Positions 3,553 to 44,037 of a DNA stretch of 44,037 nucleotides are shown here, in pieces. The notes under the pieces are model-generated. The model ran no database searches. It worked only from the letters and a program-made list of their open reading frames with translations, and was not told the origin of the DNA. Origin of the DNA: a virus; IMG/VR virus record IMGVR_UViG_3300037258_000330, positions 1 to 44,037 of that record, one strand, 5' to 3'. Position numbers and translations under genes: made by a program. The first letter of the stretch is position 1; the number at the start of each line of letters is the position of its first letter.

Positions 3553-4424
3553 GACCGGCGCTGCGCTATTACGGGGGCAAGTGGAAGATCGCGCCCTGGG
3601 TGATCAGCCATCTGCCGCCCCATCGGGTGTATGTCGAGCCGTTCGGCGGCGCGGCGTCCATCCTCTTGCGCAAGCCCCGCTCCTATGCCGAGGTGCTCAA
3701 CGATCTCGACGGTGAGGTTATCAACGTGTTCGCCGTCCTGCGCGATCCCGCCTCGGCGCTACGCCTGAAGGAGATCGTAGCGCTCACTCCGTTCGCACGG
3801 GACGAGTTCAAGCTTGCTCATGAATGGTCCGAGGAACCGGTCGAGCGTGCGCGGAGGGCGGTGATTCGTGCCTTCATGGGCTTTGGGTCGAATTCGTTTC
3901 ACGGGAAGGGGGGCATGCGGACGCGCTCATCTCCATGGACGGTATGCCGTACGGGTTTTCGCGCGAATGCCAAGCGCCAGGGTACGACGCCGGCGAGCGA
4001 CTGGGCGAGCTGGCCGGACTCGATTCCCGGGTTCATCGAGAGACTCCGTGGCGTGGTGATCGAGAACCGCGATGCGCTCGAGATCATGCGCCAGCACGAC
4101 GGCGCGGAGACGCTCTATTACCTCGACCCGCCCTACCTGATGACGACCAGGTCGTCGCGCGATCAGTACACGTTCGAGCTCGACGAGGACGGACACCGCG
4201 AGCTGGCCGAGGTTGCTCGATCGATGGTCGGATCGGTCGTGATCTCGGGTTACCACTCCGAGCTTTATGAGGACCTCTACCGCGGCTGGGTCCGCGTCGA
4301 GCGGCCCGCCCTGGCCGACGGCGCGCGGCCGCGTACCGAGGTCCTCTGGCTCTCGCCACGGGCGCACCGATCGTTACGGGACTCGAGGAATTCACTGTTC
4401 GATTTACTGGGACCACTCGTATGA
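3549..4424 (+). CDS. dam: DNA N6-adenine methyltransferase, Dam/D12 class
   Basis: YYGGKWK, EPFGGAASI (AdoMet motif) and YLDPPY (catalytic DPPY) are all present. Confidence 0.92.
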   Translation: MRPALRYYGGKWKIAPWVISHLPPHRVYVEPFGGAASILLRKPRSYAEVLNDLDGEVINVFAVLRDPASALRLKEIVALTPFARDEFKLAHEWSEEPVERARRAVIRAFMGFGSNSFHGKGGMRTRSSPWTVCRTGFRANAKRQGTTPASDWASWPDSIPGFIERLRGVVIENRDALEIMRQHDGAETLYYLDPPYLMTTRSSRDQYTFELDEDGHRELAEVARSMVGSVVISGYHSELYEDLYRGWVRVERPALADGARPRTEVLWLSPRAHRSLRDSRNSLFDLLGPLV

Positions 4425-7111
4425 AACCCCGCATCCAAGAAGACTCTCCCGACCCCCTGCGGGTCACACCGAAACGCCTGGCCGACGAGCTCGGCCAGAT
4501 CGGCGACCAGCTCGGCCGGCTGGCCAACCGCGTCCGGCCGTTCGCGTTGCTCCTGGACGCGGCCGTGCGCGATGACGTCAACGCGCTGTACGACTCGATC
4601 ACGGTCGGCTCGCGGCGGGCCGTGGACCTGGCGGCGTCGATCCGGTTCGGCGGCGCGGCGATCGTCCAGGCGCTCGTCGACACCGCGGCCGGCCGCGGCG
4701 AGCGGCCGCTCCTCGACCGGATCGAGAGTGCTCCGGCTCCGGCCGGGCCGGCCGCGGGTTATGAGTCGGTGCTTACGGCGCTGCCGGGGGCCAACGGGGC
4801 GGCCGAGCCGGAGCCGGCGAAGCGAAGCGCCAAGGCACCGGCGAAATTCGCGTGGGAGGTGTGGGCCTTCAACTCGGCGGGGATGCCGGTCTCGCTCTGC
4901 CCGATCACAGTGCCGACTCGCGATCCGGAGCGGGCGCTCGAATATGCGCGGCAGGCGGTGACCGAGGGTGAGGACAAGCTCATCGACATCGATAGGTCTC
5001 TCGTTCCCGTCGATCCGGCCAAGCTCAAAGTGCTTCGCATGGGATCGCCAGAGGCGGTGAAATTCGCGTCCGAGTCGGAGCGGGCGCCGGCGTGGACCGG
5101 GGGTGAGGTCGTCGCCGCCGGCGAGTACACGCTCGAGGAGCTCGGCCTGGGCGGCCAGCTCGACCGGATCGAGGCTGCATACAGCGGCGACACGATCGCG
5201 AGCAATGGAAAGCTCCGGGGCGTGATCGCCGTCAAGGATCGTCTCTATGCCAATGTCGGCGGCCTCATGAAGGGGGGCACGATATTGCGGGTCGATCTGG
5301 TCAAGCTGGTGCCGCTTGAGAGCTGGACCGGGGCGAGCTGCACGTATGCGGAACGGGCCATGACGCGCCCGCATAAAGATTTCTACAATTCCGTCCGGGT
5401 CGAGCACAAGGGCCAGTCGTACGTGATGCTCGGCAAACTCGGCCGGTTGAACATCGTTATCCCGCCGGCCGCTGAGACGGTTCCCCAGCCGGCCGAGCCG
5501 GCGCCGGTCGAATCGGAGCCGGAGCCGGCCGAGGCGCCCGAGAAGACCGTCAAGATCCCGACCGACGCCGAGGAACGCAAGGCGCGGCGGCGCGAGAACG
5601 ACGCGAAGTACCAGGCCAAGAAGCGCGAGAAGCGGCTGCTCGACAAGGCGATCGGCAACCGGGTCGAGTCGGCCGGCCCGGTCGATCGCCGCGAGAAACT
5701 CCGGGAGCCGGTGCTCGGGCCGACCGTGCCGGCGAAGTCGCTGGCGACGCCGGCCCACTGGGCGTCCGTGCCGATCGCCGAGCTGCAATTGACCGACGCC
5801 AGCAAGCGGGCCCTGGCCGACGGCATGAAATTCAAGACGGCCGGCGACGTCGCCGACTGGCTCGCGACCAACCCCAAAGCGCCCTGGCCGACGCCGTCGG
5901 CGACGCCGTGGCCGGAGGTCGTCGAGATCGCCAAGGTCGCGATCGAGCTCGTCAAGAAACTGCATGAGCAGCCGGCCGAGCCGCCGGCCGACGTCGAATG
6001 CTGCTCGGTGCTCTCGCCGTGTCCCGAGGGTTACCAGCGGGTCTACAGCGTGCACGCGCGGGAAACCTACACACGGGCGGAGATCCGGGCCGGCGCGAAG
6101 CCGCAGCGCCTGGGCGAAGTCATCGCGGCCAACATCGATGAGGCGAAGCTTGCGGCGGCGCGCCGGTTCGGCGTCCGGCCGGTCGAGGTCGGCGAGTGCA
6201 TGGTCGATGGTGGCAAGGGGCAGAAGATCGTTCGTGTGCCTCGGTTTGATGTGCTCGATCTGAAGGCGGTCGACAAGAAAGGCCAGTACAAGGTCCTGGG
6301 CACGATCGATGCGCCGAACAGCGCCCGCGCCCGGATCATCGCCGAGAAACGGTGGTCCGACCTGCCGCCCGACCGGCTCAACATCCGGAACGTCGAGCTC
6401 CGGCCGGCCGAGTCCAAGCCGCGCAAGCCGAAACCGAAGCCGGCCCCCGAGCCCGACCCGCTTGAGAACCTGTTTATCTATTGGGGCCAGGGCAAGGGCG
6501 GGAAGCAGGTGAACCCGGTCTACGGGATCAAGGCGCCGTCGCTCACGGCGGCGGTCGCCTGGGTCGATGCGCATCACCCCAAGGATCACGGCGGCCAGGT
6601 CCGGCCCGACCTCGACGGTACGATCGTGCGCCGCAAGGTGCCGGTCGTCGTCGATCTCGTGCTCAATCCGGCGGCCCATCCGGACCCCCCGCCGGCCGAG
6701 CTGGCCACGCCGACGGCCGCAGGCCAGATCGACCTATGCACCCTGCATGGCCAGCCGCCGCTGCCGGCCGGGCACGAGCGCGTCTTCAGCGTGTACGACA
6801 GCCGGACAAATCCGCCGACTGTGCTCGGCGAGATCGCCGGCGCGAACATCACCCGGGCCATGATGGCGGCCGAGGCGCAGTGGCCCGACGTGCCGAAGCG
6901 GATGCTCGCCTACAAGCCCAAGCTCGCGCCCGGGACCAAGCATCAGGCGACCCGGCCGGCCAATCGGCTCGTCGACCCCGACGTCGAGCTGGCGGAGTTC
7001 CGGCGCTCGTTCGACGTCGGCGCCGACCGCGCGCAGTGGCTGCTCGAGCAAAGGAGCAACGGCGAGCCGGACCTCGAGCCGGAGCCGGCCGAAAGCGAGG
7101 CGTCCGGATGA
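4421..7111 (+). CDS. Large orphan early protein (896 aa) with five repeated beta-beta-alpha-like modules, Pro/Glu/Ala linkers and a helix-hairpin-helix-like segment
   Basis: ATGA coupling to dam. The composition is protein-like, unlike the Arg-rich antisense ORF 4277..6679. ELQLTDASKRALADGMKFKTAGDVADW resembles an RNA polymerase alpha-CTD-type HhH. Confidence 0.85.
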   Translation: MKPRIQEDSPDPLRVTPKRLADELGQIGDQLGRLANRVRPFALLLDAAVRDDVNALYDSITVGSRRAVDLAASIRFGGAAIVQALVDTAAGRGERPLLDRIESAPAPAGPAAGYESVLTALPGANGAAEPEPAKRSAKAPAKFAWEVWAFNSAGMPVSLCPITVPTRDPERALEYARQAVTEGEDKLIDIDRSLVPVDPAKLKVLRMGSPEAVKFASESERAPAWTGGEVVAAGEYTLEELGLGGQLDRIEAAYSGDTIASNGKLRGVIAVKDRLYANVGGLMKGGTILRVDLVKLVPLESWTGASCTYAERAMTRPHKDFYNSVRVEHKGQSYVMLGKLGRLNIVIPPAAETVPQPAEPAPVESEPEPAEAPEKTVKIPTDAEERKARRRENDAKYQAKKREKRLLDKAIGNRVESAGPVDRREKLREPVLGPTVPAKSLATPAHWASVPIAELQLTDASKRALADGMKFKTAGDVADWLATNPKAPWPTPSATPWPEVVEIAKVAIELVKKLHEQPAEPPADVECCSVLSPCPEGYQRVYSVHARETYTRAEIRAGAKPQRLGEVIAANIDEAKLAAARRFGVRPVEVGECMVDGGKGQKIVRVPRFDVLDLKAVDKKGQYKVLGTIDAPNSARARIIAEKRWSDLPPDRLNIRNVELRPAESKPRKPKPKPAPEPDPLENLFIYWGQGKGGKQVNPVYGIKAPSLTAAVAWVDAHHPKDHGGQVRPDLDGTIVRRKVPVVVDLVLNPAAHPDPPPAELATPTAAGQIDLCTLHGQPPLPAGHERVFSVYDSRTNPPTVLGEIAGANITRAMMAAEAQWPDVPKRMLAYKPKLAPGTKHQATRPANRLVDPDVELAEFRRSFDVGADRAQWLLEQRSNGEPDLEPEPAESEASG

Positions 7112-7831: not shown

Positions 7832-8938
7832 ATGAAGGCTACATGCTCGCGGCGTGGCTTTACCCTGATCGAGATTCTGATGGTGATCGTGATCATCGGC
7901 GTGCTCGTCGGCCTGCTCGTGCCGGCGATCGCGGGCGCGATGCGGGCCGCGAATAACGCGGCCGTGCAGTCGGAGCTGAACGCGCTGGCGTCGGCCCTGA
8001 CGGCGTTCCGGAGCCAGTTCGGCGACTATCCCCCGTCGCGGATCTTGCTCTGCGAGGACGGGAATTATGCACCGTTCTTCACGTCGGGCACGTACACGCT
8101 CGGCCAGACGGCGAGCCCGTCGGCGATCGACCAGTCGGACGGGGCGCTCGCGGCCCGGTCGATCTCGGCGCTCCGGAAGATGTTCCCGCGCTGCGCCCAG
8201 TCGGCCGCCGGCCCGCTCTACAACCTGGCGAGCGGCTGGCCCGACTACAACGGCAACGGCCAGATCGACCCGCCGCGGCTGATCTCGGGCGACGAGTGCC
8301 TGGTGTTTTTCCTCGGCGGCCAGCCGACGAAACTGGCCGGCCCGCCCGGCTCGTCGACGCCGGCCTGGGCGACGACCGGGTGGGGCGCCGACCCGCGGGC
8401 GCCCTTCCTGGTGGCCGCGAAGAACCGGATCCAGCCGCTCTATGATTTCGCGGCCAACCGGCTCGTCGACGCCGACGGCGATGGGTACCCGTCGTACGTC
8501 GACAGCCTCGGCACCAGCCGGCCGATCGTGTACTTCAGCGGGTACAGCGGGGCCGGCTACGACCCCAATGACGTGAACTTCGACGTCGGGTCAACATACG
8601 TCGAGACCGACGAGAACGGCACCACGTCGCCGATCGCCTTGCGGTTCACCGTGGCGTTTCCCGTGCTGGGCGGCGCACCGGCGGCGATCTCGCCGGCGCC
8701 GAACCCGTACACGTATTCGACGTCGGTCGCGAGCCCGGCGAACTGGATCAAGCCGCAATCGTTCCAGGTCTTCTCGGCCGGCGGCGACGGCCAGTACGGG
8801 GTCGGCGGCCTCTATAGCGACTCGGCCGACGAGCCGTTGCCGGTCGACACGGCGAACACGACGCCGTCGTCGGATGCGGGGATCAGGATACGTGAGCGTG
8901 ACAACCTGACCAATTTCCGGAACGGCCGGCTGGACTGA
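7832..8938 (+). CDS. Prepilin-type (GspG/type IV pilin-like) protein with a large C-terminal extension
   Basis: MKATCSRRG/FTLIEILMVIVIIGVLVGLLVPA shows a class III signal peptide with Gly-1, Phe+1 and Glu+5. The following helix, NNAAVQSELNALASALTAFRSQFGDYPPS, resembles T2SS GspG. GAGG is 7 nt upstream. Confidence 0.85.
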   Translation: MKATCSRRGFTLIEILMVIVIIGVLVGLLVPAIAGAMRAANNAAVQSELNALASALTAFRSQFGDYPPSRILLCEDGNYAPFFTSGTYTLGQTASPSAIDQSDGALAARSISALRKMFPRCAQSAAGPLYNLASGWPDYNGNGQIDPPRLISGDECLVFFLGGQPTKLAGPPGSSTPAWATTGWGADPRAPFLVAAKNRIQPLYDFAANRLVDADGDGYPSYVDSLGTSRPIVYFSGYSGAGYDPNDVNFDVGSTYVETDENGTTSPIALRFTVAFPVLGGAPAAISPAPNPYTYSTSVASPANWIKPQSFQVFSAGGDGQYGVGGLYSDSADEPLPVDTANTTPSSDAGIRIRERDNLTNFRNGRLD

Positions 8939-35111: not shown

Positions 35112-35825
35112 TCACGGGGTGGTTATCAGTTTGGGAGCGGCCTCGAGCTCGACCGTGATCCGGTACGCGCCCGCCGCAGGAATCCGGAGCGGGACGGCGA
35201 CCGGAGCCGCCGCGCCGACTGCGATGCCGAGCACCGTGTCGCCGGCCTCGGTGAAGATCGCGTCGATCGCGAGCGACCGGTCGACTGTGAGCGTCGGCAC
35301 GGCCGCCGGCTCGACCGGAGCGGGCGCGGGCGCCGCGAGGGGGTACCGCTCGAGGGCTTGGGCGACGTCGTCGGGCTGGGGGCCGGCGAGCTGAGGCTGA
35401 TAGATCGGATTCATGATGGCCGGCGTGGCCGTCGTATGCACGAAACCGAGCGCGTGCCCGAACTCGTGCATGGCGACCTGGGCGAGCTCCTCGACCGTCC
35501 AGGCGACGTCGATGTTGAGCTGCATCGTCACTTGATCCACGCCGGTCGGAAGCTGAGTCAACCCGAGCTCGACGCCGCTGGGATCCAGTGTCGCGAACTC
35601 AATGAGCACGTGCGCGGCTTCGCCCGTGCCCGATGCCGTCTGCACGCCGCACACTTGCGGCCAGACGTCGGCCGCGGCGACGATCGCCGAGAGCGCGTCC
35701 GACCACGAGAGTCCGGCAGGGAGCGGATCGGTCCGGAGCCAGTACGTGACGAGCGTTCCGGGTGCCCAGCGATAGATCGCGGTGTCTCTCAGCTCGGGGC
35801 GGCCGCAATGACAATTCGCCTTCAC
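35112..35825 (-). CDS. Matrixin-type metzincin zinc protease (M10-like) with C-terminal beta domain
   Basis: HEFGHALGFVH (HExxHxxGxxH) plus the Met-turn AIMNPIY. The GTG start forms a GTGA overlap. Confidence 0.85.
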   Translation of the reverse strand: MKANCHCGRPELRDTAIYRWAPGTLVTYWLRTDPLPAGLSWSDALSAIVAAADVWPQVCGVQTASGTGEAAHVLIEFATLDPSGVELGLTQLPTGVDQVTMQLNIDVAWTVEELAQVAMHEFGHALGFVHTTATPAIMNPIYQPQLAGPQPDDVAQALERYPLAAPAPAPVEPAAVPTLTVDRSLAIDAIFTEAGDTVLGIAVGAAAPVAVPLRIPAAGAYRITVELEAAPKLITTP

Positions 35826-37559: not shown

Positions 37560-38117
37560 TCAGCGTCGGAGAAAATGAAACGACGACTTACTTGGTGCCT
37601 GCGGGGTCGCGAGCACGGCCTGCGCCGGCGGGGAGAGCGCCGTCGCGGGTGGTGCCTGGACGAGCTGCACGACGACCGGCGTCGCGGTAGCGGACGACGC
37701 CGGCAGAACGAGCCGATCGCGCTTGAGCTCGGCGAGCCGTTCGCCGAAGTTTCCAAGCGCTATCCGGACCGGGCCCGGATGCCGGATCTCGGCCAGGATG
37801 GTCGAGGGTGCCGATGGCGCAGTGACCGCGGCGGCCGGCGCCGCGACCACATGCAGCGTGACGGTCTGCGCCTGGGGCGCCGGTGCCGCGGCCGGCGGTA
37901 CCACCAGGTGGATGACGGCCGCCGGGGGGTCGGCCGGTTTCGGGGGGGCCGGAGCCGGCGCCGTGTCGGCCTGGGCCGGGAGCTGCGAGCTCGGGAGCGG
38001 CGCGCCCGCCGTGAGTCGCGGCGGCTCGACGACGTGGCCGTCGTCGGCCCAGAGGAACGCGGCCGAGCCCAGCACGAACAGAGCGACCCCGCCGATCCGA
38101 ATAATCCAAGCTTTCAC
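37560..38117 (-). CDS. Signal-anchored Pro/Ala-rich protein (185 aa)
   Basis: The GTG at 38117 is followed by KAWIIRIGGVALFVLGSAAFLWA. The N-terminal part of track ORF 37560..38456 is Arg/Gly-rich junk. Confidence 0.5.
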   Translation of the reverse strand: MKAWIIRIGGVALFVLGSAAFLWADDGHVVEPPRLTAGAPLPSSQLPAQADTAPAPAPPKPADPPAAVIHLVVPPAAAPAPQAQTVTLHVVAAPAAAVTAPSAPSTILAEIRHPGPVRIALGNFGERLAELKRDRLVLPASSATATPVVVQLVQAPPATALSPPAQAVLATPQAPSKSSFHFLRR

Positions 38118-38354
38118 ACCCACTCGGGGCCCCCTTTCGCGCGCGATCGATCTGGCGTAAACGCCAAACCTTACCACATCTTTTATCGGCCGGTCGGGCC
38201 GCCCTCCCCTACCCTTTTCCCGACCGGCCAGGGGACCGCGGCCGGTCCGCGAACCGGCGCCGCCGGCAACCGTCGGACCGGATCCGGCCCCCCGTCCGAT
38301 TGGGCAAAAAGGGCAGGGGGGATCTGTGCTCCGGCGGGGGGCGGAAAAGATTTT

Positions 38355-38396
38355 CGGAGTCCGGGTATTGACGGAGTCCGTTGATCCGCGTACTAT
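38355..38396 (+). promoter_or_regulatory. Near-consensus sigma70-type promoter TTGACG-17-TACTAT with two copies of the palindrome CGGAGTCCG
   Basis: -35 is at 38368-38373 and -10 at 38391-38396, with an exactly 17-nt spacer. CGGAGTCCG occurs at 38355-38363 and 38372-38380, the second overlapping the -35 and the spacer. Confidence 0.7.
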
Positions 38397-38442
38397 GATC
38401 TCAGACGCGAGCAAGGGGCTCGCGGGACACGACCGGAGCACG

Positions 38443-38814
38443 ATGATGACCACCATCTACCACGTCACACGATCCTGGGATGGTAATAACCTTCGGTCGC
38501 TCGCCAAGCAGATTGACGACGGCGACCGCGGTCTCGACGAAGCTATCCAGGAGGTCGCGGACAAGTGGTTTGGTGGGGATCTGCGGCAGGCTGAAGAGTA
38601 TGCTGGCGACGATGGTCGTGAGGTCCACTGTCACGCCACGACGGCCGAAGCAATCGAGTATCGGGACGAATGGTGCGATGGCGGCGAAATCCTCGCGATT
38701 GAGTACGACGACGAGTGCGAGGAACTCCGGGTATACGACGGCCGGGAGTACAAACACCCGGTGGTGTGGGAGATGATTCCGGCCGAGATGATCAAGGTTC
38801 TCACCGAGGTTTGA
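38443..38814 (+). CDS. Small, highly acidic protein (123 aa); anti-defence candidate
   Basis: GGAG is 5 nt upstream of the ATG. GC is visibly lower than in neighbouring genes. Asp/Glu-rich: DDGDRGLDEAIQEVADKW...EYDDECEELRVYDGRE. Confidence 0.7.
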   Translation: MMTTIYHVTRSWDGNNLRSLAKQIDDGDRGLDEAIQEVADKWFGGDLRQAEEYAGDDGREVHCHATTAEAIEYRDEWCDGGEILAIEYDDECEELRVYDGREYKHPVVWEMIPAEMIKVLTEV

Positions 38815-38837
38815 ACCCCAACACAAGGAACCTGACG

Positions 38838-39113
38838 ATGATTGTGCCTGTGACTAAGACTCTTTGCACGCTCGGCGAATACGGCGCGAACCGCATTTGG
38901 TTTAGCTCTTGCTCGATGGGCTACCAGGCGGGCGAGACGTTTGAAATCGACGACGTCCAGACCTGCGGTGTCCCCGACGCCTGGTTCGAACTCGAGGGCG
39001 ATGTGGACGGTGACGGCACATGGCATTGGATGGGCAAGGGCGATCCAGTTGACGAGCATGGGGCGACAGTCAGGAACATGAGGGCATGGGTCGCAGATCA
39101 GGACGCATCATGA
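38838..39113 (+). CDS. Small acidic protein (91 aa); anti-defence candidate
   Basis: AAGGA is 9 nt upstream. Contains ETFEIDDVQTCGVPDAWFELEGDVDGDGTWHW. Taken from the tail of track ORF 38715..39113. Confidence 0.65.
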   Translation: MIVPVTKTLCTLGEYGANRIWFSSCSMGYQAGETFEIDDVQTCGVPDAWFELEGDVDGDGTWHWMGKGDPVDEHGATVRNMRAWVADQDAS

Positions 39114-39340
39114 TCGACCGCATCGAATCCGGCCGCCGCCTGGCCGCCGCCCGCCAGGCCCGCGGCCTCACGCAGGCCGCCGCCGCCGAGCTCGCCCCGA
39201 TCTCGGCCCGCGAGCTCTCCGACCTCGAGCGCGGCCGGCGGATGCCGTCATGGGCACTCGTGCTCGAGCTGGTCGGCCGGCTCGGCCTCGACCCGGCCAT
39301 CGTCGCGCCCGAGCTGGTCGGGCGCAAGGCCTCGAAATAA
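39110..39340 (+). CDS. XRE/Cro-type helix-turn-helix regulator (76 aa)
   Basis: ATGA overlap with the upstream gene. RLAAARQARGLTQAAAAELAPISARELSDLERGRRMPSWALVLELVGRLGL is a canonical HTH_XRE pattern. Confidence 0.85.
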   Translation: MIDRIESGRRLAAARQARGLTQAAAAELAPISARELSDLERGRRMPSWALVLELVGRLGLDPAIVAPELVGRKASK

Positions 39341-39465: not shown

Positions 39466-39499
39466 GGGCCGGGCCGCTCCGAGCGACCCGGCCCCTTTT
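39466..39499 (+). terminator. Rho-independent terminator candidate for the 38443-39340 operon
   Basis: GGGCCGGG / CCCGGCCC 8-bp stem, then C TTTT G CTT. Confidence 0.55.
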
Positions 39500-39512
39500 G
39501 CTTGGTCTCACG

Positions 39513-39536: not shown

Positions 39537-39569
39537 ACCGTTATTATCGGCCGGCACGGCGGCCGAGGA

Positions 39570-39779
39570 TTAGTACACCCCGAGGCCCTGGCACGCCGGG
39601 CACTCGAGGTAGCCCAGTCCATCGCACTCGCCGCAACCGCGGCCGCCGCAGACATCACATGTGATGTCGCCGGCGCCGTGGCATTCGCGGCACTCGACGC
39701 CCGGCTCGGAGCCGAGGATCAATGCGACGATCACGTCGCGTTCGGCCCGCTCTCGATCGGTCCGCCGCTTGTCTCGCAT
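39570..39779 (-). CDS. Stand-alone DnaJ-type zinc-finger miniprotein (four CxxCxGxG motifs in 69 aa)
   Basis: Motifs are CRECHGAG, CDVCGGRG, CGECDGLG and CPACQGLG. The ATG at 39779 has AAGGGGA upstream. Confidence 0.75.
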   Translation of the reverse strand: MRDKRRTDRERAERDVIVALILGSEPGVECRECHGAGDITCDVCGGRGCGECDGLGYLECPACQGLGVY

Positions 39780-40074: not shown

Positions 40075-40326
40075 TTACACGACGTCGCCGGCCTCGATCG
40101 CCCGGACCGAGGCCTCGAGGGCCACGACGGCCGGATCGTCGGCCGCCAGCTCGGCCGCCGTGATCGCGACCGTGTGGCCGTCCGGCGTCCGGACGAGCAG
40201 GACCGGGCCGTTGAGCCGGAGCGTGGCGCTCGAGCCGAGCGAGCCGGGCGCGTAGACCTCGGCGAGCTCGAGCCAGATCCGACGGAGGATGTGATTGGCG
40301 ACGGGGGTGTTCACGGGGGTGGTCAT
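40075..40326 (-). CDS. Hypothetical protein (83 aa)
   Basis: The internal ATG forms an ATGA overlap with the upstream stop. Confidence 0.55.
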   Translation of the reverse strand: MTTPVNTPVANHILRRIWLELAEVYAPGSLGSSATLRLNGPVLLVRTPDGHTVAITAAELAADDPAVVALEASVRAIEAGDVV

Positions 40327-40544
40327 CGCTTCGGTGCCTCCTCGTCGAATCCCTCTTCGCGGGCCAAGAGAATAAGCCCCTTCTCGATGGCCGACGACCC
40401 AGGGATTCGCAAATATGCGACAAGCCGTTGAAACCATTCCGCAAATTCGGGCGATCCCCTGAACGACGCGATCATTGATCGGGGGACCGGAACTTTCGGA
40501 CGCCCGCCCTGGTTCTTCTTCGGCTTGGCCATTGTAGTCGACAT
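40323..40544 (-). CDS. Small RHH-like DNA-binding protein (73 aa)
   Basis: Basic tail KPKKNQGGRPK, then SMIASFRGS / PEFAEWFQRLVAYL / SSAIEKGLILLAREEG fits strand-helix-helix. It is the first gene leftward of the divergent control region. Confidence 0.55.
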   Translation of the reverse strand: MSTTMAKPKKNQGGRPKVPVPRSMIASFRGSPEFAEWFQRLVAYLRIPGSSAIEKGLILLAREEGFDEEAPKR

Positions 40545-40661
40545 GCCTTTAGGCCCTCGATTCGTCGCCAGCCGGAAGTATAACCAGTGCGCATGTCGCG
40601 CTGACAGACGTTCCAATGTACAGCGTCATCAACGAATTTGCTATACGAAAACATTATACCC

Positions 40662-40689
40662 TTGACGTCAACATGGTTCTCGTTATACT
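40662..40689 (+). promoter_or_regulatory. Sigma70-type promoter TTGACG-16-TATACT; the -35 is part of the perfect palindrome TTGACGTCAA
   Basis: -35 is at 40662-40667, the palindrome at 40662-40671 and -10 at 40684-40689, inside the AT-richest intergenic stretch. Confidence 0.6.
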
Positions 40690-40722
40690 TAAACCGTCGG
40701 CCGGATCGTGTCCCGCCGGCGC

Positions 40723-40761
40723 AAAAAAAACCCCGCCGGATCGGATGAGGATCTGGCGGGG
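40723..40761 (-). terminator. Canonical intrinsic terminator in minus orientation inside the leader of the plus-strand operon
   Basis: 12-bp stem CCCCGCCGGATC / GATCTGGCGGGG (one G-U pair) with a 7-nt loop. A8 at 40723-40730 gives a U8 tail on the minus strand. Confidence 0.55.
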
Positions 40762-40805
40762 CCCATATGGTGAAGTCCCGATCCCACGCGAGGAATGAGA
40801 CATCT

Positions 40806-42165: not shown

Positions 42166-42456
42166 ATGGGCAAGAAAACGGAAACCAACGGCGACGGTCG
42201 GCCCGTGATCGTTTGCACCGAGCACCGGGGCGTGTTTTTCGGCTACGCAGGCGACACGAGCGGCGACGTGATCGCGCTCAAGCGGGCCCGGATGGCGATC
42301 TACTTCGGCACCACCCGGGGCGTGATGCAGTTGGCCGAGACCGGGCCGACGGCGAACTCCAAGATCTCCGCGCGTGCCGACCTGGAAGTCCGCAAGATCA
42401 CCGCCGTGATGGAGGTGGCGGCGCCCGCCGTCGAGGCGTGGGAGAAAGCCTCATGA
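42166..42456 (+). CDS. Conserved-phage-family-like small protein (96 aa)
   Basis: GAGGGA is upstream. The pattern VIVCTEHRGVFFGY...VIALKRARMAIYFG...GVMQLAETGP...SKIS resembles a widespread phage protein family (V-V-R-x-AGV-F-G ... ARR-WYW ... LA-x-G). The family name is not verifiable here. Confidence 0.65.
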   Translation: MGKKTETNGDGRPVIVCTEHRGVFFGYAGDTSGDVIALKRARMAIYFGTTRGVMQLAETGPTANSKISARADLEVRKITAVMEVAAPAVEAWEKAS

Positions 42457-42875
42457 GCTGGTGTGACTACCGGCCGGTCGTGACCGTCGTTGACGTCCTC
42501 GAGACGAAGGCCTGCTATTCCGGCGTGATTGACTGGATCAGCCGGCACGACAGGCTGATCAGTGCGCCGACGGACCAATTTGCGAACCGCTACGTCAACA
42601 CCGCCGCCCGCGCTGACGGCTCCGGCTCCGGCTACGGCGACGGCTCCGGCTCCGGCTACGGCGACGGCTCCGGCTACGGCTACGGCGACGGCTCCGGCTC
42701 CGGCGACGGCTCCGGCTACGGCTACGGCGACGGCTCCGGCTCCGGCTCCGGCTACGGCGACGGCTCCGGCTACGGCTCCGGCTACGGCTCCGGCTACGGC
42801 GACGGCTCCGGCTACGGCTCCGGCTACGGCTCCGGCTACGGCGACGGCTCCGGCTACGGCTCCGGCTCCGACTGA
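42453..42875 (+). CDS. Protein with N-terminal Cys-containing domain and a C-terminal (G-S/Y/D) repeat tail
   Basis: ATGA overlap with the upstream gene. MSWCDYRPVVTVVDVLETKACYSGVIDWISRH is followed by DGSGSGYGDGSGYGYGDGSG... Confidence 0.7.
   Translation: MSWCDYRPVVTVVDVLETKACYSGVIDWISRHDRLISAPTDQFANRYVNTAARADGSGSGYGDGSGSGYGDGSGYGYGDGSGSGDGSGYGYGDGSGSGSGYGDGSGYGSGYGSGYGDGSGYGSGYGSGYGDGSGYGSGSD
42615..42872 (+). repeat. Tandem 6-nt/18-nt coding microsatellite (GGCTCC / GGCTAC / GGCGAC units)
   Basis: About 43 consecutive hexamer units read directly. All are in frame with 42453..42875. Confidence 0.95.
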
Positions 42876-42904
42876 TTGACGTCCGTCCGCAATCGCAGTA
42901 TCTT
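42876..42904 (+). promoter_or_regulatory. Promoter-like element TTGACG-17-TATCTT immediately after the stop codon
   Basis: -35 is at 42876-42881 and -10 at 42899-42904. It has the same -35 hexamer as the other two promoters. Confidence 0.4.
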
Positions 42905-42910
42905 CACCGA

Positions 42911-43014
42911 ATCGTAAGGGGGCTAGTAACCCCTCGACCGTACACGGCCCCGCAAGGGGCAGTGAATCCGCCCTTCCCGGTAGTACTAGCTACCGGGCGG
43001 GGCGTTTTTCTTTT
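42911..43014 (+). ncRNA. Candidate ~100-nt structured RNA (three hairpins ending in an intrinsic terminator), or a structured 3' UTR
   Basis: Hairpin 1 is 42917-42934. Hairpin 2 is 42947-42960 with a GCAA tetraloop. Hairpin 3 is the terminator. No ORF is present. Confidence 0.3.
42969..43014 (+). terminator. Rho-independent terminator
   Basis: CCCGGTAG / CTACCGGG 8-bp core stem extended by CCGCCC/GGGGCG, followed by TTTTTCTTTT. Confidence 0.75.
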
Positions 43015-43083
43015 ACGCACCAGGCTGACAGCGGACCACACACCAAATGTCTCCGCTGGCGGCCGCTGAAGAAACCGAGCGAA

Positions 43084-43365: not shown

Positions 43366-44037
43366 ATGGCGTCTTCCCGAGCGATCCACCGGCTCGAGGT
43401 CCTGGTCGATCTCCAGCTCGACGGCCGTCTGTCCGCGACCGCGCGCCTGATCCTCGGCTCACTCCCCCCGCTGGCCGGCGGGGGGGTGGTGAGCCCGACC
43501 GACCGCGAGCTGGCCGAGCTGCACGGCTGCTCCGAGCGAACCGTCCGGTCGGCACTCGCCGCCGGCGTCCGCGCCGGCTGGATCCGCCGGCTCACCCGGG
43601 CCGAGGCTATGGCCGAGCGCCTGGTTCCCCGGGAAGCGGCAAAAGGCCGCCGGTACCTGGTGCTCCTGTGGGTGGTCGAGGCCCGCGAGCCGGCAACTTT
43701 CTGCCGGCAACTTCCTGCCGCTTCCCCGTTGGCTACCGGCAGGAAGTTGCCGGCTCCCACCGAGTTGCCGGCAGAAAGTTGCCGCCCCCTCGCGTGTGCG
43801 CCCGTTTCGAACCCCTCTTTACGAACGAAGAGAGAAGAACGTACGAGCGATTTCTCTCCCCCCGTGGGAATGCCGCCCTTGACCGGGTGCAGTCCCGCGA
43901 CCAAGCGCCTGTTTGCCGCCCAGTTTGAGCGGACGCGCGCCGAGGAGTCTCAGCCGGGCTACACGCCCCCGCCGCCGCCCTGGTGGGAGACCCGTCGCCC
44001 CCCGACGCCGGCGCCGACGCGCCGGATGAAGGTCGAG
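43366..44037 (+). CDS. 5' part of the junction-spanning replication-initiator-like gene (wHTH N-terminal domain; continues at position 128 after collapsing the overlap)
   Basis: The ATG at 43366 opens a frame with no stop to the window end (hand-translated). Contains ARLILGSL...VSPTDRELAELHGCSERTVRSALAAGVRAGWIRR. It is absent from the ORF track because it runs off the end. Confidence 0.7.
   Translation, partial: MASSRAIHRLEVLVDLQLDGRLSATARLILGSLPPLAGGGVVSPTDRELAELHGCSERTVRSALAAGVRAGWIRRLTRAEAMAERLVPREAAKGRRYLVLLWVVEAREPATFCRQLPAASPLATGRKLPAPTELPAESCRPLACAPVSNPSLRTKREERTSDFSPPVGMPPLTGCSPATKRLFAAQFERTRAEESQPGYTPPPPPWWETRRPPTPAPTRRMKVE
43690..43784. repeat. Iteron cluster: CCGGCAACTT(T/C)CTGCCG twice direct and twice inverted, plus one extra half-site
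   Basis: Direct copies are at 43690-43707 and 43704-43720. Inverted copies are at 43737-43753 and 43768-43784. The half-site AGTTGCCGG is at 43763-43771. Copy 1 is the reverse complement of copy 4, and copy 2 of copy 3. Confidence 0.9.

Follow-up and report, generated by a model that had tools for sequence, protein, structure and literature searches.

The window analyzed in this work is the whole stretch of 44,037 nucleotides (nt) of the viral record IMGVR_UViG_3300037258_000330 of IMG/VR, and the element in question is a short block at positions 38355-39340, here called the cassette, which encodes two small acidic proteins (open reading frames ORF1 and ORF2) and a terminal helix-turn-helix (HTH) protein of the XRE family. 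Because the two ends of the contig share an exact overlap of 127 bp (1-127 and 43911-44037), the window is a complete circular (or terminally redundant) phage genome of ~43,910 bp, and the same overlap rules out a prophage with host flanks. Judged by its genes for an integrase, the large terminase (TerL), a portal, a MuF-like protein, an HK97-type capsid protein, and a tape measure protein, the phage is tailed and temperate. A preliminary description of this DNA had singled out the cassette as the only block that runs against the direction of its neighbors, and this is borne out: it is the sole plus-strand unit between minus-strand genes ending at 38117 and starting at 39570. The promoter, the paired palindromes, and the genes for proteins of 123, 91, and 76 amino acids (aa) that it had listed are all found where it placed them, as are the acidity of the first two proteins and the ATGA overlap that links the last gene to the second. 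The features of the cassette are the following:

38355-38363, plus strand: distal operator candidate CGGAGTCCG, centered at about -44 from the inferred transcription start and lying 5 nt upstream of the -35 hexamer.
38368-38396, plus strand: sigma-70-like promoter, with TTGACG at 38368-38373, a 17-nt spacer, and TACTAT at 38391-38396.
38372-38380, plus strand: proximal operator candidate CGGAGTCCG, covering the last 2 nt of the -35 hexamer and 7 nt of the spacer, centered at about -27.
38406-38424, plus strand: small hairpin of the 5' untranslated region, GCGAGC...GCTCGC (z = -1.2, not significant on its own).
38443-38814, plus strand: ORF1, 123 aa, isoelectric point (pI) 4.3, 31 Asp and Glu residues; predicted minimal ADP-ribosyltransferase (ART) fold family.
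38838-39113, plus strand: ORF2, 91 aa, pI 4.1, 16 Asp and Glu residues, Trp-rich, with an AAGGA ribosome-binding site.
39110-39340, plus strand: XRE-family HTH protein, 76 aa, pI 11, coupled to ORF2 through ATGA (the ATG lies inside the ORF2 stop); predicted autorepressor.
39466-39503, plus strand: hairpin resembling an intrinsic terminator, with 14-bp GC-rich arms followed by CTTTTGCTT (3' region z = -2.4).

We read this arrangement as a self-limiting accessory operon ("moron") built in the style of the anti-CRISPR (acr) and anti-CRISPR-associated (aca) operons, with a cargo of predicted ART fold that would act in anti-defense or host takeover. On the sequences and structure models presented below, we give this reading about an even chance of being correct.

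The regulatory region is considered first. In a promoter scan, the cassette promoter matches the consensus at 9/12 positions, with an optimal spacer and an intergenic location. It is not the best promoter in the window, as had been claimed earlier, because the site at 40662-40689 (TTGACG-16-TATACT) scores 10/12, and five further sites in the window equal the 9/12 of the cassette. The two 9-bp palindromes are exact, with arms of 4+1+4 (CGGA-G-TCCG), and the proximal copy overlaps the -35 hexamer and the spacer as described. The 44 kb hold one further exact copy of CGGAGTCCG, which lies within the TerL gene, and with up to one mismatch the motif is absent from the other promoter regions of the phage, including those at 40617-40766 and 42876. 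Among 20,000 dinucleotide shuffles of the intergenic region (325 nt), 83 contain an exact palindromic 9-mer that recurs within 40 nt. The pair is therefore unlikely to be a product of chance, although short repeats are in general frequent in this region because of its skewed composition. Shine-Dalgarno-like motifs precede all three genes (GGAG for ORF1, AAGGA for ORF2, and AGGA for the HTH gene). The start of ORF1 at 38443/38446 is backed by the N-termini of its homologues; the public (JGI) gene call of 139 aa would have its start within the -10 hexamer.

In acr-aca operons, a small HTH gene lies at the 3' end of a short operon, and one inverted repeat is always located in the core promoter, often with a second one (PMC9410906). 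At the sequence level, the cassette has both an inverted repeat inside its core promoter and a second one nearby. With acrIF-aca1 of the Pseudomonas phage JBD30 and acrIF8-aca2 of ZF40 (PMC9410906, PMC6765145) it further shares the short operon, the strong promoter, and the order of unrelated small cargo first and HTH last, as well as the mosaic character of parts that are shuffled between elements. The acr-aca organization proposed in the preliminary description thus holds for the design of the operon, but not for its components, since the HTH protein matches no solved Aca and the cargo shows no relation to a known Acr in sequence searches of the PDB; there is also no link to CRISPR. Another difference is that the constant element of the cassette is the first cargo, ORF1, while the regulators vary, which is the reverse of the usual guilt-by-association.

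ORF1 belongs to a family of its own. A word-indexed search returned just two homologues, with 61-64% identity, and an exhaustive HMMER search with their alignment returned 84 representative clusters (E < 1e-3), mostly free-standing proteins of 100-140 aa. The family, known from metagenomes only, is acidic throughout (median pI 4.5 in a 56-sequence alignment), and its members, where the sources name them, are called "hypothetical protein". None of the 56 members matches any Pfam model, and the models for PTS_2-RNA, DUF952, and other ARTs give nothing at E <= 1; ORF1 likewise has no match in PHROG, NCBIfam, or PADLOC. The family gave no match in tblastn searches with three members against 50,697 GenBank phage records and with one member against the PLSDB plasmids, and degenerate-pattern scans of viral, genome, and metagenome contig collections confirmed no relative of ORF1. 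A sequence search of the PDB with the ORF1 profile found nothing relevant and no known Acr relative. By its sequences, this is a real, undescribed family that is present in none of the curated libraries searched.

Within the family alignment, H7 is invariant (56/56 sequences) and is followed at position 9 by T, C, A, V, or S, while Y6, V8, G14, L17, W42, H62, A70, E102, and H105 are conserved in at least 90% of the alignment (H62 in 52, E102 in 54, and H105 in 52 of the 56 sequences). The AlphaFold model of ORF1 obtained from the 56 sequences has a mean predicted local distance difference test (pLDDT) score of 96.4 and a predicted template modeling (pTM) score of 0.88; from 3 sequences the model was unusable (pLDDT 48.5). 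When this model is compared with the PDB by Foldseek, all 18 of the 18 best matches are either Tpt1/KptA (15 entries) or CC0527/DUF952, with a best E of 5e-3, probabilities up to 1.0, and template modeling (TM) scores of 0.45-0.49. The matches in BFVD include DarT, the rifampin ADP-ribosyltransferase Arr, a putative RNA 2'-phosphotransferase, and PARP. The preliminary description had proposed that models of both small proteins be compared with known inhibitors; for ORF1, the nearest folds found in this way are those of the ADP-ribosyltransferase superfamily.

The profile alignments point in the same direction. Using the real sequences of the Tpt1 C-lobe and CC0527, taken from PDB alignments, hhalign places the family block VHxHAT..EA..GGxILxID..EYPHP..IPAxxI in register with VHLS..A..G..VvLxVD..VPxEFI of the Tpt1 C-lobe (E 5e-4, probability 30%) and with IHLS..LVLLAVEA..RFPHL of CC0527 (E 0.028). 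By eye, the N-terminal IYHVT of ORF1 also resembles the Tpt1 strand LYHGT. The shared motifs, YH[VG]T, VH-x-[HS], a hydrophobic strand-ID, and [YF]-P-H, run in register through ORF1 and its best structural matches, the size of DUF952 being similar to that of ORF1. A review groups Tpt1 and CC0527 among the "H-H-h" ARTs and assigns contact with the NAD+ ribose to their H-x-[S/T] motif (PMC8120803). The ORF1 family has the traits of this type, carrying the His motif on the first strand and a further His on the second. Compared to Tpt1 and CC0527, ORF1 has an additional helical insert of ~35 residues (18-58) and the near-invariant Glu102, and its family is associated solely with phages or mobile elements. 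As several individually weak signals agree, we assign the ART fold to ORF1, on the basis of the model, with good confidence.

This assignment bears on a number of other candidates. The preliminary description had taken the acidity of the small proteins as typical of DNA mimics, which for ORF1 is unlikely given its confident ART-type model and its conserved His, His, Glu, and His residues of pocket type. A 2H phosphoesterase, suggested by two HxT motifs, was rejected on two grounds: H64 and T66 lack strict conservation, and the model predicts an ART fold. A Tpt1 proper was also rejected, since ORF1, with 123 aa, lacks both the N-terminal winged-helix lobe and the Arg-His-Arg-Arg tetrad; R59, which corresponds to the Arg of the tetrad, is kept in only 6 of the 56 sequences. 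For the same reasons the chemistry of ORF1 cannot be read from its sequence, but the four conserved residues look like a ligand or catalytic site.

It is conceivable that ORF1 is not a transferase at all, and acts instead as a sponge or eraser of NAD-derived immune signals (of cyclic ADP-ribose type, or ADP-ribose adducts) or in Tpt1-like repair of RNA ends, which would counter tRNA-cleaving defenses; the logic of the operon would be the same as in the anti-defense moron. Such a role would fit a fold that comes closest to DUF952 and to the NAD/ADP-ribose-binding lobe of Tpt1, and not to the toxin-type ARTs, as well as the retention of ligand-contacting His residues in a family with neither the classic R-S-E nor the H-Y-E triad; viral KptA homologues have, moreover, been proposed to act in RNA repair (PMC9503650). 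However, the RNA-binding N-lobe and the tetrad of Tpt1 are missing and R59 is variable, so that genuine 2'-phosphotransferase chemistry is unlikely, and no genes for an RNA ligase, 2H, or macro protein are found nearby. The near-invariance of E102 and H105, in turn, looks catalytic rather than purely ligand-binding. We consider a non-transferase role quite unlikely.

A functional precedent for ORF1 is AcrIF11 (PDB 6KYF). Like ORF1, AcrIF11 comes from phages or plasmids and measures ~120-130 aa, and it has the ART fold and the place in HTH-regulated operons that are predicted for ORF1. The key residues of AcrIF11, H7-H37-D115 (PMC8120803), find a counterpart in H7-H62-E102 of ORF1, with the NAD-site His 7 on the first strand, a second His, and an acid near the C-terminus in both cases. 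AcrIF11 is, however, described as diphtheria-toxin-like, while ORF1 is nearest to Tpt1/DUF952. As no homology was detected, ORF1 stands outside the AcrIF11 family, and the resemblance is one of function and architecture rather than of family membership.

The genomic contexts of the relatives of ORF1 are varied, and the genes that adjoin them differ between loci, with no conserved neighbor. At locus L003 the homologue is the third gene of a plus-strand early block and is divergent from an HTH gene, at L007 it lies at the left early end of a phi29-like (virulent) podophage, and at L096 it ends an early replication operon. In the sister phages L004 and L006 the stretch that holds it is variable and is bordered on one side by the lysis genes and on the other by a conserved pair of genes, for a 53-aa protein and an HTH protein, that precedes the replication genes. 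The extra genes in this variable early region of L006 include one at 5182-5445, two genes upstream of the ORF1-family gene, for an 87-aa homologue of Csx3 (Pfam Cas_csx3, E 1e-21), which is absent from the sister L004. Csx3 is a family of ring nucleases that act on cyclic oligoadenylate, and the L006 protein is, by its sequence, likely an anti-type-III-CRISPR ring nuclease.

Four representatives are domains within proteins of about 760-1900 aa. Two of these large proteins, of 1670 and 1917 aa, match PHROG 6651, "internal virion protein", and a third shows HELGH and ParB-like motifs by eye; none of the large domain-bearing proteins has a Pfam match, ART-PolyVal included. They resemble the injected "polyvalent" proteins described in PMC5512222, and the presence of the ORF1 domain in proteins of internal-virion type implies that it is delivered along with the DNA as soon as infection begins. 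Similar to T4 Alt and the ART-PolyVal proteins (PMC5512222), the ORF1 domain thus occurs in internal-virion-type proteins of 1.6-1.9 thousand aa. T4 Alt and ModA/B, however, belong to the R-S-E clade, and ORF1 of the window is a free-standing gene with predicted transcriptional regulation.

The design of the cassette recurs in at least three other phages. In L092/L093 the ORF1 homologue (58% identity) comes first and is followed by an unrelated basic protein of 254 aa, an 86-aa HTH_3 protein, and then convergent genes, while in L097 the homologue, a 129-aa protein, and a 66-aa HTH protein (HTH_31, 9e-5) form a plus-strand trio amid minus-strand late genes. In L094/L095 a 97-aa HTH gene directly overlaps the homologue, and genes for ParA/ParB are found nearby. 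The middle genes of the recurring cassettes are unrelated and their terminal HTH proteins are not orthologous, the 42% identity over 33 aa between those of the window and L092 being of a generic kind. Each of the following promoters carries its own repeat:

L097: ACTCAGTAGCTA in two copies, 32 nt apart, around TTGCAA/TATAAT.
L002: CGGGGA(A/T)TCCCGTAT in two copies, 33 nt apart, around TTGACT/TATTAT.
L001: palindrome with 14-nt arms over TTGACG.
L092: ACCGAGAA-N14-TTCTCGGT, just upstream of TTGACG.

A separate repeat for each promoter is the pattern expected if each terminal HTH protein represses its own cassette, and it agrees with the account of acr-aca promoters in PMC9410906. At L001, the sequence upstream of the cassette (60-110) resembles by eye the 3' part of a minus-strand tRNA, which would put this cassette close to an attachment site; ARAGORN reports no tRNA there, and the likeness is unconfirmed.

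The composition of the cassette is mosaic. ORF1 and ORF2 have 59% GC, with a GC content at third codon positions (GC3) of 0.70-0.72, and the promoter stretch has 60% GC, while the HTH gene has 76% GC and a GC3 of 0.94, within the genome range of 0.82-0.95. ORF1 and ORF2 are thus compositionally foreign and the HTH gene is native, and the low GC that the preliminary description ascribed to the whole block holds for the promoter stretch and the two cargo genes, but not for the HTH gene. In the L092 cassette this composition pattern is reversed. On both sides of the window cassette, a 21-nt direct repeat is found:

38183-38203: left copy, TTATCGGCCGG..., with 81% identity to the right copy, the exact 11-mer TTATCGGCCGG included.
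39544-39564: right copy, just after the stop of the minus-strand gene 39570-39779.

By a rough estimate, the repeat pair is only marginally above chance. It may be the scar, or footprint, of an insertion, and would be compatible with entry of the cassette into a formerly continuous minus-strand unit.

Searches of 5.8 billion proteins, the PDB, and viral contigs returned no relative of ORF2, which also lacks matches in Pfam, NCBIfam, and PADLOC. Identical copies are found in three other samples of the same phage, but these contigs are uninformative because they are 99.9-100% identical to the window. The coding-type GC pattern and the ribosome-binding site nevertheless suggest that ORF2 is a genuine gene, for which a role as DNA mimic is conceivable.

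The HTH protein is clearly recognized by Pfam (HTH_31 1e-13, HTH_3 1.6e-9) and by many PHROGs named "transcriptional regulator", which supports the XRE assignment made earlier. Among solved structures, DdrOC, C.AhdI, and ImmR come closest to it (E 3e-5 to 7e-4), and the "Control_protein" of PADLOC matches it at 7.5e-5. The comparison with Aca proteins that had been suggested was made against solved structures: no Aca is found at E <= 0.01 and nothing named Aca up to E = 5, an unnamed 65-aa "Transcriptional regulator", 7xi5, matching at E 0.35. The controller proteins of restriction-modification systems provide a further parallel, as C.AhdI is likewise an XRE HTH protein of 74-76 aa (E 3e-4), and such controllers have two adjacent short palindromes upstream of or overlapping their own -35, as in the cassette. 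However, restriction and methylase genes are lacking in the cassette, and the two proteins resemble each other only as generic HTH proteins do.

Another possibility to be weighed is that the HTH protein serves the phage itself as a CI- or Cro-like regulator of lysogeny or early expression. The promoter would then belong to the genetic switch, and ORF1 and ORF2 would be passengers, for which rexAB, co-transcribed with lambda cI, is the model. The phage does have an integrase, no other XRE-type repressor was recognized among the proteins scanned, and the long minus-strand (structural) block opens with a gene that is divergent to the cassette; the native GC of the HTH gene next to two genes that look recently acquired would also be in line with this proposal. 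Against it, CGGAGTCCG is found at no other promoter region with one mismatch allowed, and the phage has a separate divergent control region at 40617-40766, with the strongest promoter and a palindrome of its own, TTGACGTCAA. In addition, 76 aa leave no space for a CI-type oligomerization or cleavage domain, and in unrelated phages with the same design it is ORF1, and not the HTH protein, that is the constant element. We regard a switch at this locus as distinctly improbable. The HTH protein looks like a local regulator rather than a master repressor, because its putative operator is absent from the other promoter regions and a separate control region exists.

A toxin-antitoxin, abortive-infection, or addiction module would be organized in a related way, with ORF1 as an ART toxin in the manner of DarT, ParT, RES, or CmdT, neutralized by ORF2 and/or the HTH protein, the latter also providing autoregulation, and with superinfection exclusion or the stabilization of a lysogen or plasmid as the gain for the phage. 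The pairing of an ART-fold toxin with an HTH-type antitoxin is a known design (review PMC8120803), and the cassette stands as a unit of its own in a temperate phage, antisense to its surroundings and of foreign composition. The HTH protein has a sub-threshold likeness to the Y4mF/HipB-type antitoxin model (33 bits, cut-off 71.65) and to HigA (E 0.022), and the overlap of HTH gene and homologue near the ParA/ParB genes at L094/L095 also speaks for such a module. However, there is no conserved, co-inherited partner, as the neighbors are unrelated across loci and the HTH proteins are not orthologous, and PADLOC gives no match for ORF1 or ORF2. The homologue among the early genes of a virulent, phi29-like phage speaks against such a module, and the domain inside giant internal-virion proteins fits a weapon against the host better than a self-poison. 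The acidity of the whole ORF1 family would, moreover, be unusual for toxins that target nucleic acids. A module of this kind is in our view rather unlikely.

We return to the accessory operon of acr-aca style, for which we infer the following course, from promoter activity and operator binding to enzymatic activity, target, and anti-defense role. The cassette, self-contained, would have been inserted antisense between two minus-strand gene blocks. Upon entry of the genome or induction, the host RNA polymerase would fire the TTGACG-17-TACTAT promoter and produce a transcript of ~1.1 kb that covers ORF1, ORF2, and the HTH gene and ends at the hairpin 39466-39503. ORF1, as a minimal ART-fold protein of the "H-H-h" type of the Tpt1 C-lobe and DUF952 with an additional conserved Glu, would most likely bind NAD+ or a ligand containing ADP-ribose and covalently modify a host component, in counter-defense or host takeover, for which AcrIF11 and T4 Alt are functional precedents. 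ORF2 would be a second, independent orphan cargo. Through the ATGA coupling, the HTH protein would be made in a fixed ratio, bind both copies of CGGAGTCCG (~-44 and ~-27), block the -35 hexamer, and shut the operon, as Aca repressors and the restriction-modification controller proteins do.

Several observations weigh against this interpretation. The matches to the fold of ORF1 are weak in absolute terms (TM < 0.5, best E 5e-3), the hhalign probabilities are low (30% and 1.7%), and ORF1 has neither the N-lobe nor the Arg-His-Arg-Arg tetrad of Tpt1. With AcrIF11 as query, its sequence verified as that of 6KYF, the hhalign probability with ORF1 is 0.2%, by which a homologue of AcrIF11 was rejected, and 6KYF is not among the top 50 structural matches. 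The 4-bp half-sites of CGGAGTCCG are unusually compact for an HTH dimer, and the 17-bp spacing sets the two copies on different faces of the helix. The HTH protein is the only recognizable XRE regulator among the window proteins scanned, which makes a genome-wide role possible. ORF2 has no relatives by which selection on it could be judged. Finally, there is no known anti-defense gene in the cassette of the window, the association with Csx3 is that of a single locus, and nothing ties the cassette to CRISPR as a particular target.

A bolder proposal, which we put forward only tentatively, is that the ORF1 family consists of widespread, unrecognized, minimal NAD+-dependent ARTs that covalently inactivate a component of host immunity, with ORF2 as a second new inhibitor. 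They would be deployed either as the lead gene of HTH-controlled cassettes or as part of ejected internal-virion proteins, in a manner analogous to AcrIF11 but evolutionarily independent of it. Enzymatic anti-defense proteins that act sub-stoichiometrically are rare and potent, and AcrIF11 is, to our knowledge, the only ART anti-CRISPR. It has been found to be highly effective (PMC12421852). The family described here offers at least 84 clusters with a confident model, the candidate catalytic residues H7, H62, E102, and H105, and a recurrent regulatory context, and leads to the testable hypothesis of a new phage use of NAD+ chemistry at the start of infection. It would also provide a new bait for guilt-by-association, namely, whatever genes a cassette carries between its ORF1 homologue and its last gene, that of the HTH protein. 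Should the cassette prove to be a toxin-antitoxin module, the family would represent a new family of ART toxins.

As regards the origin of the phage, no DNA similarity to the 36-42 kb part of the window is found among the GenBank phages, and a search of named genomes for sister prophages, with TerL as the guide, gave identities of at most 45% and yielded neither a syntenic comparison nor a host assignment. An Isosphaeraceae metagenome-assembled genome is among these TerL relatives. An unusual phage cargo is encoded at 7832-8938 on the plus strand. This protein, of 368 aa, has an N-terminal methylation motif of the prepilin type (Pfam N_methyl) and a GspG-like N-terminus, and it hints at a pseudopilin-rich host, for example, of the Planctomycetota or Verrucomicrobiota.

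The divergent control region at 40617-40766 has a low GC content (55%) and the best sigma-70-like site of the window, TTGACG-16-TATACT, with its -35 within the 10-bp palindrome TTGACGTCAA; it is probably the real early or lysogeny switch of the phage. Its TTGACG/CGTCAA half-sites are common to the ORF1 promoter of L001. Next to the promoter at 40662, a small minus-strand protein (~40323-40544) is ribbon-helix-helix-like by eye and has no match in the PDB.

A candidate small RNA of the phage is located on the plus strand at 42876-43020, where the promoter-like TTGACG-17-TATCTT is followed by ~110 nt of non-coding sequence with three hairpins. The predicted fold has a minimum free energy of -55.3 kcal/mol (z = -4.8), none of 200 shuffles being as stable, and the element ends with a clean terminator, CGCCCTTCCCGGTAG..CTACCGGGCGGGGCG + TTTTTCTTTT; it has no Rfam match, as is the case for the whole window. 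Directly upstream, the plus-strand gene 42453-42875 encodes a protein whose C-terminal half is a long GYG/GSG/GDG run that stems from tandem repeats of 12 and 18 nt.

On the minus strand at 4682-4757, ARAGORN calls a tRNA-Arg(CCG) inside a plus-strand ORF of 896 aa (4421-7111), whose coding statistics are good and which matches no family; the call could be spurious or represent an attP-related tRNA fragment, or the ORF could be over-extended. Convergent with the cassette and directly downstream of it, the minus-strand gene 39570-39779 encodes a 69-aa protein with eight Cys residues in DnaJ-type CxxCxGxG repeats (weak matches to Pfam BSD2_CRD and DnaJ_CXXCXGXG). Lastly, the minus-strand block upstream of the terminase includes a gene at 35112-35825 for a 237-aa protein with a metalloprotease signature, as given by a precomputed Peptidase_M10 assignment for the identical L089 gene and by weak matches to NCBIfam metalloprotease models.

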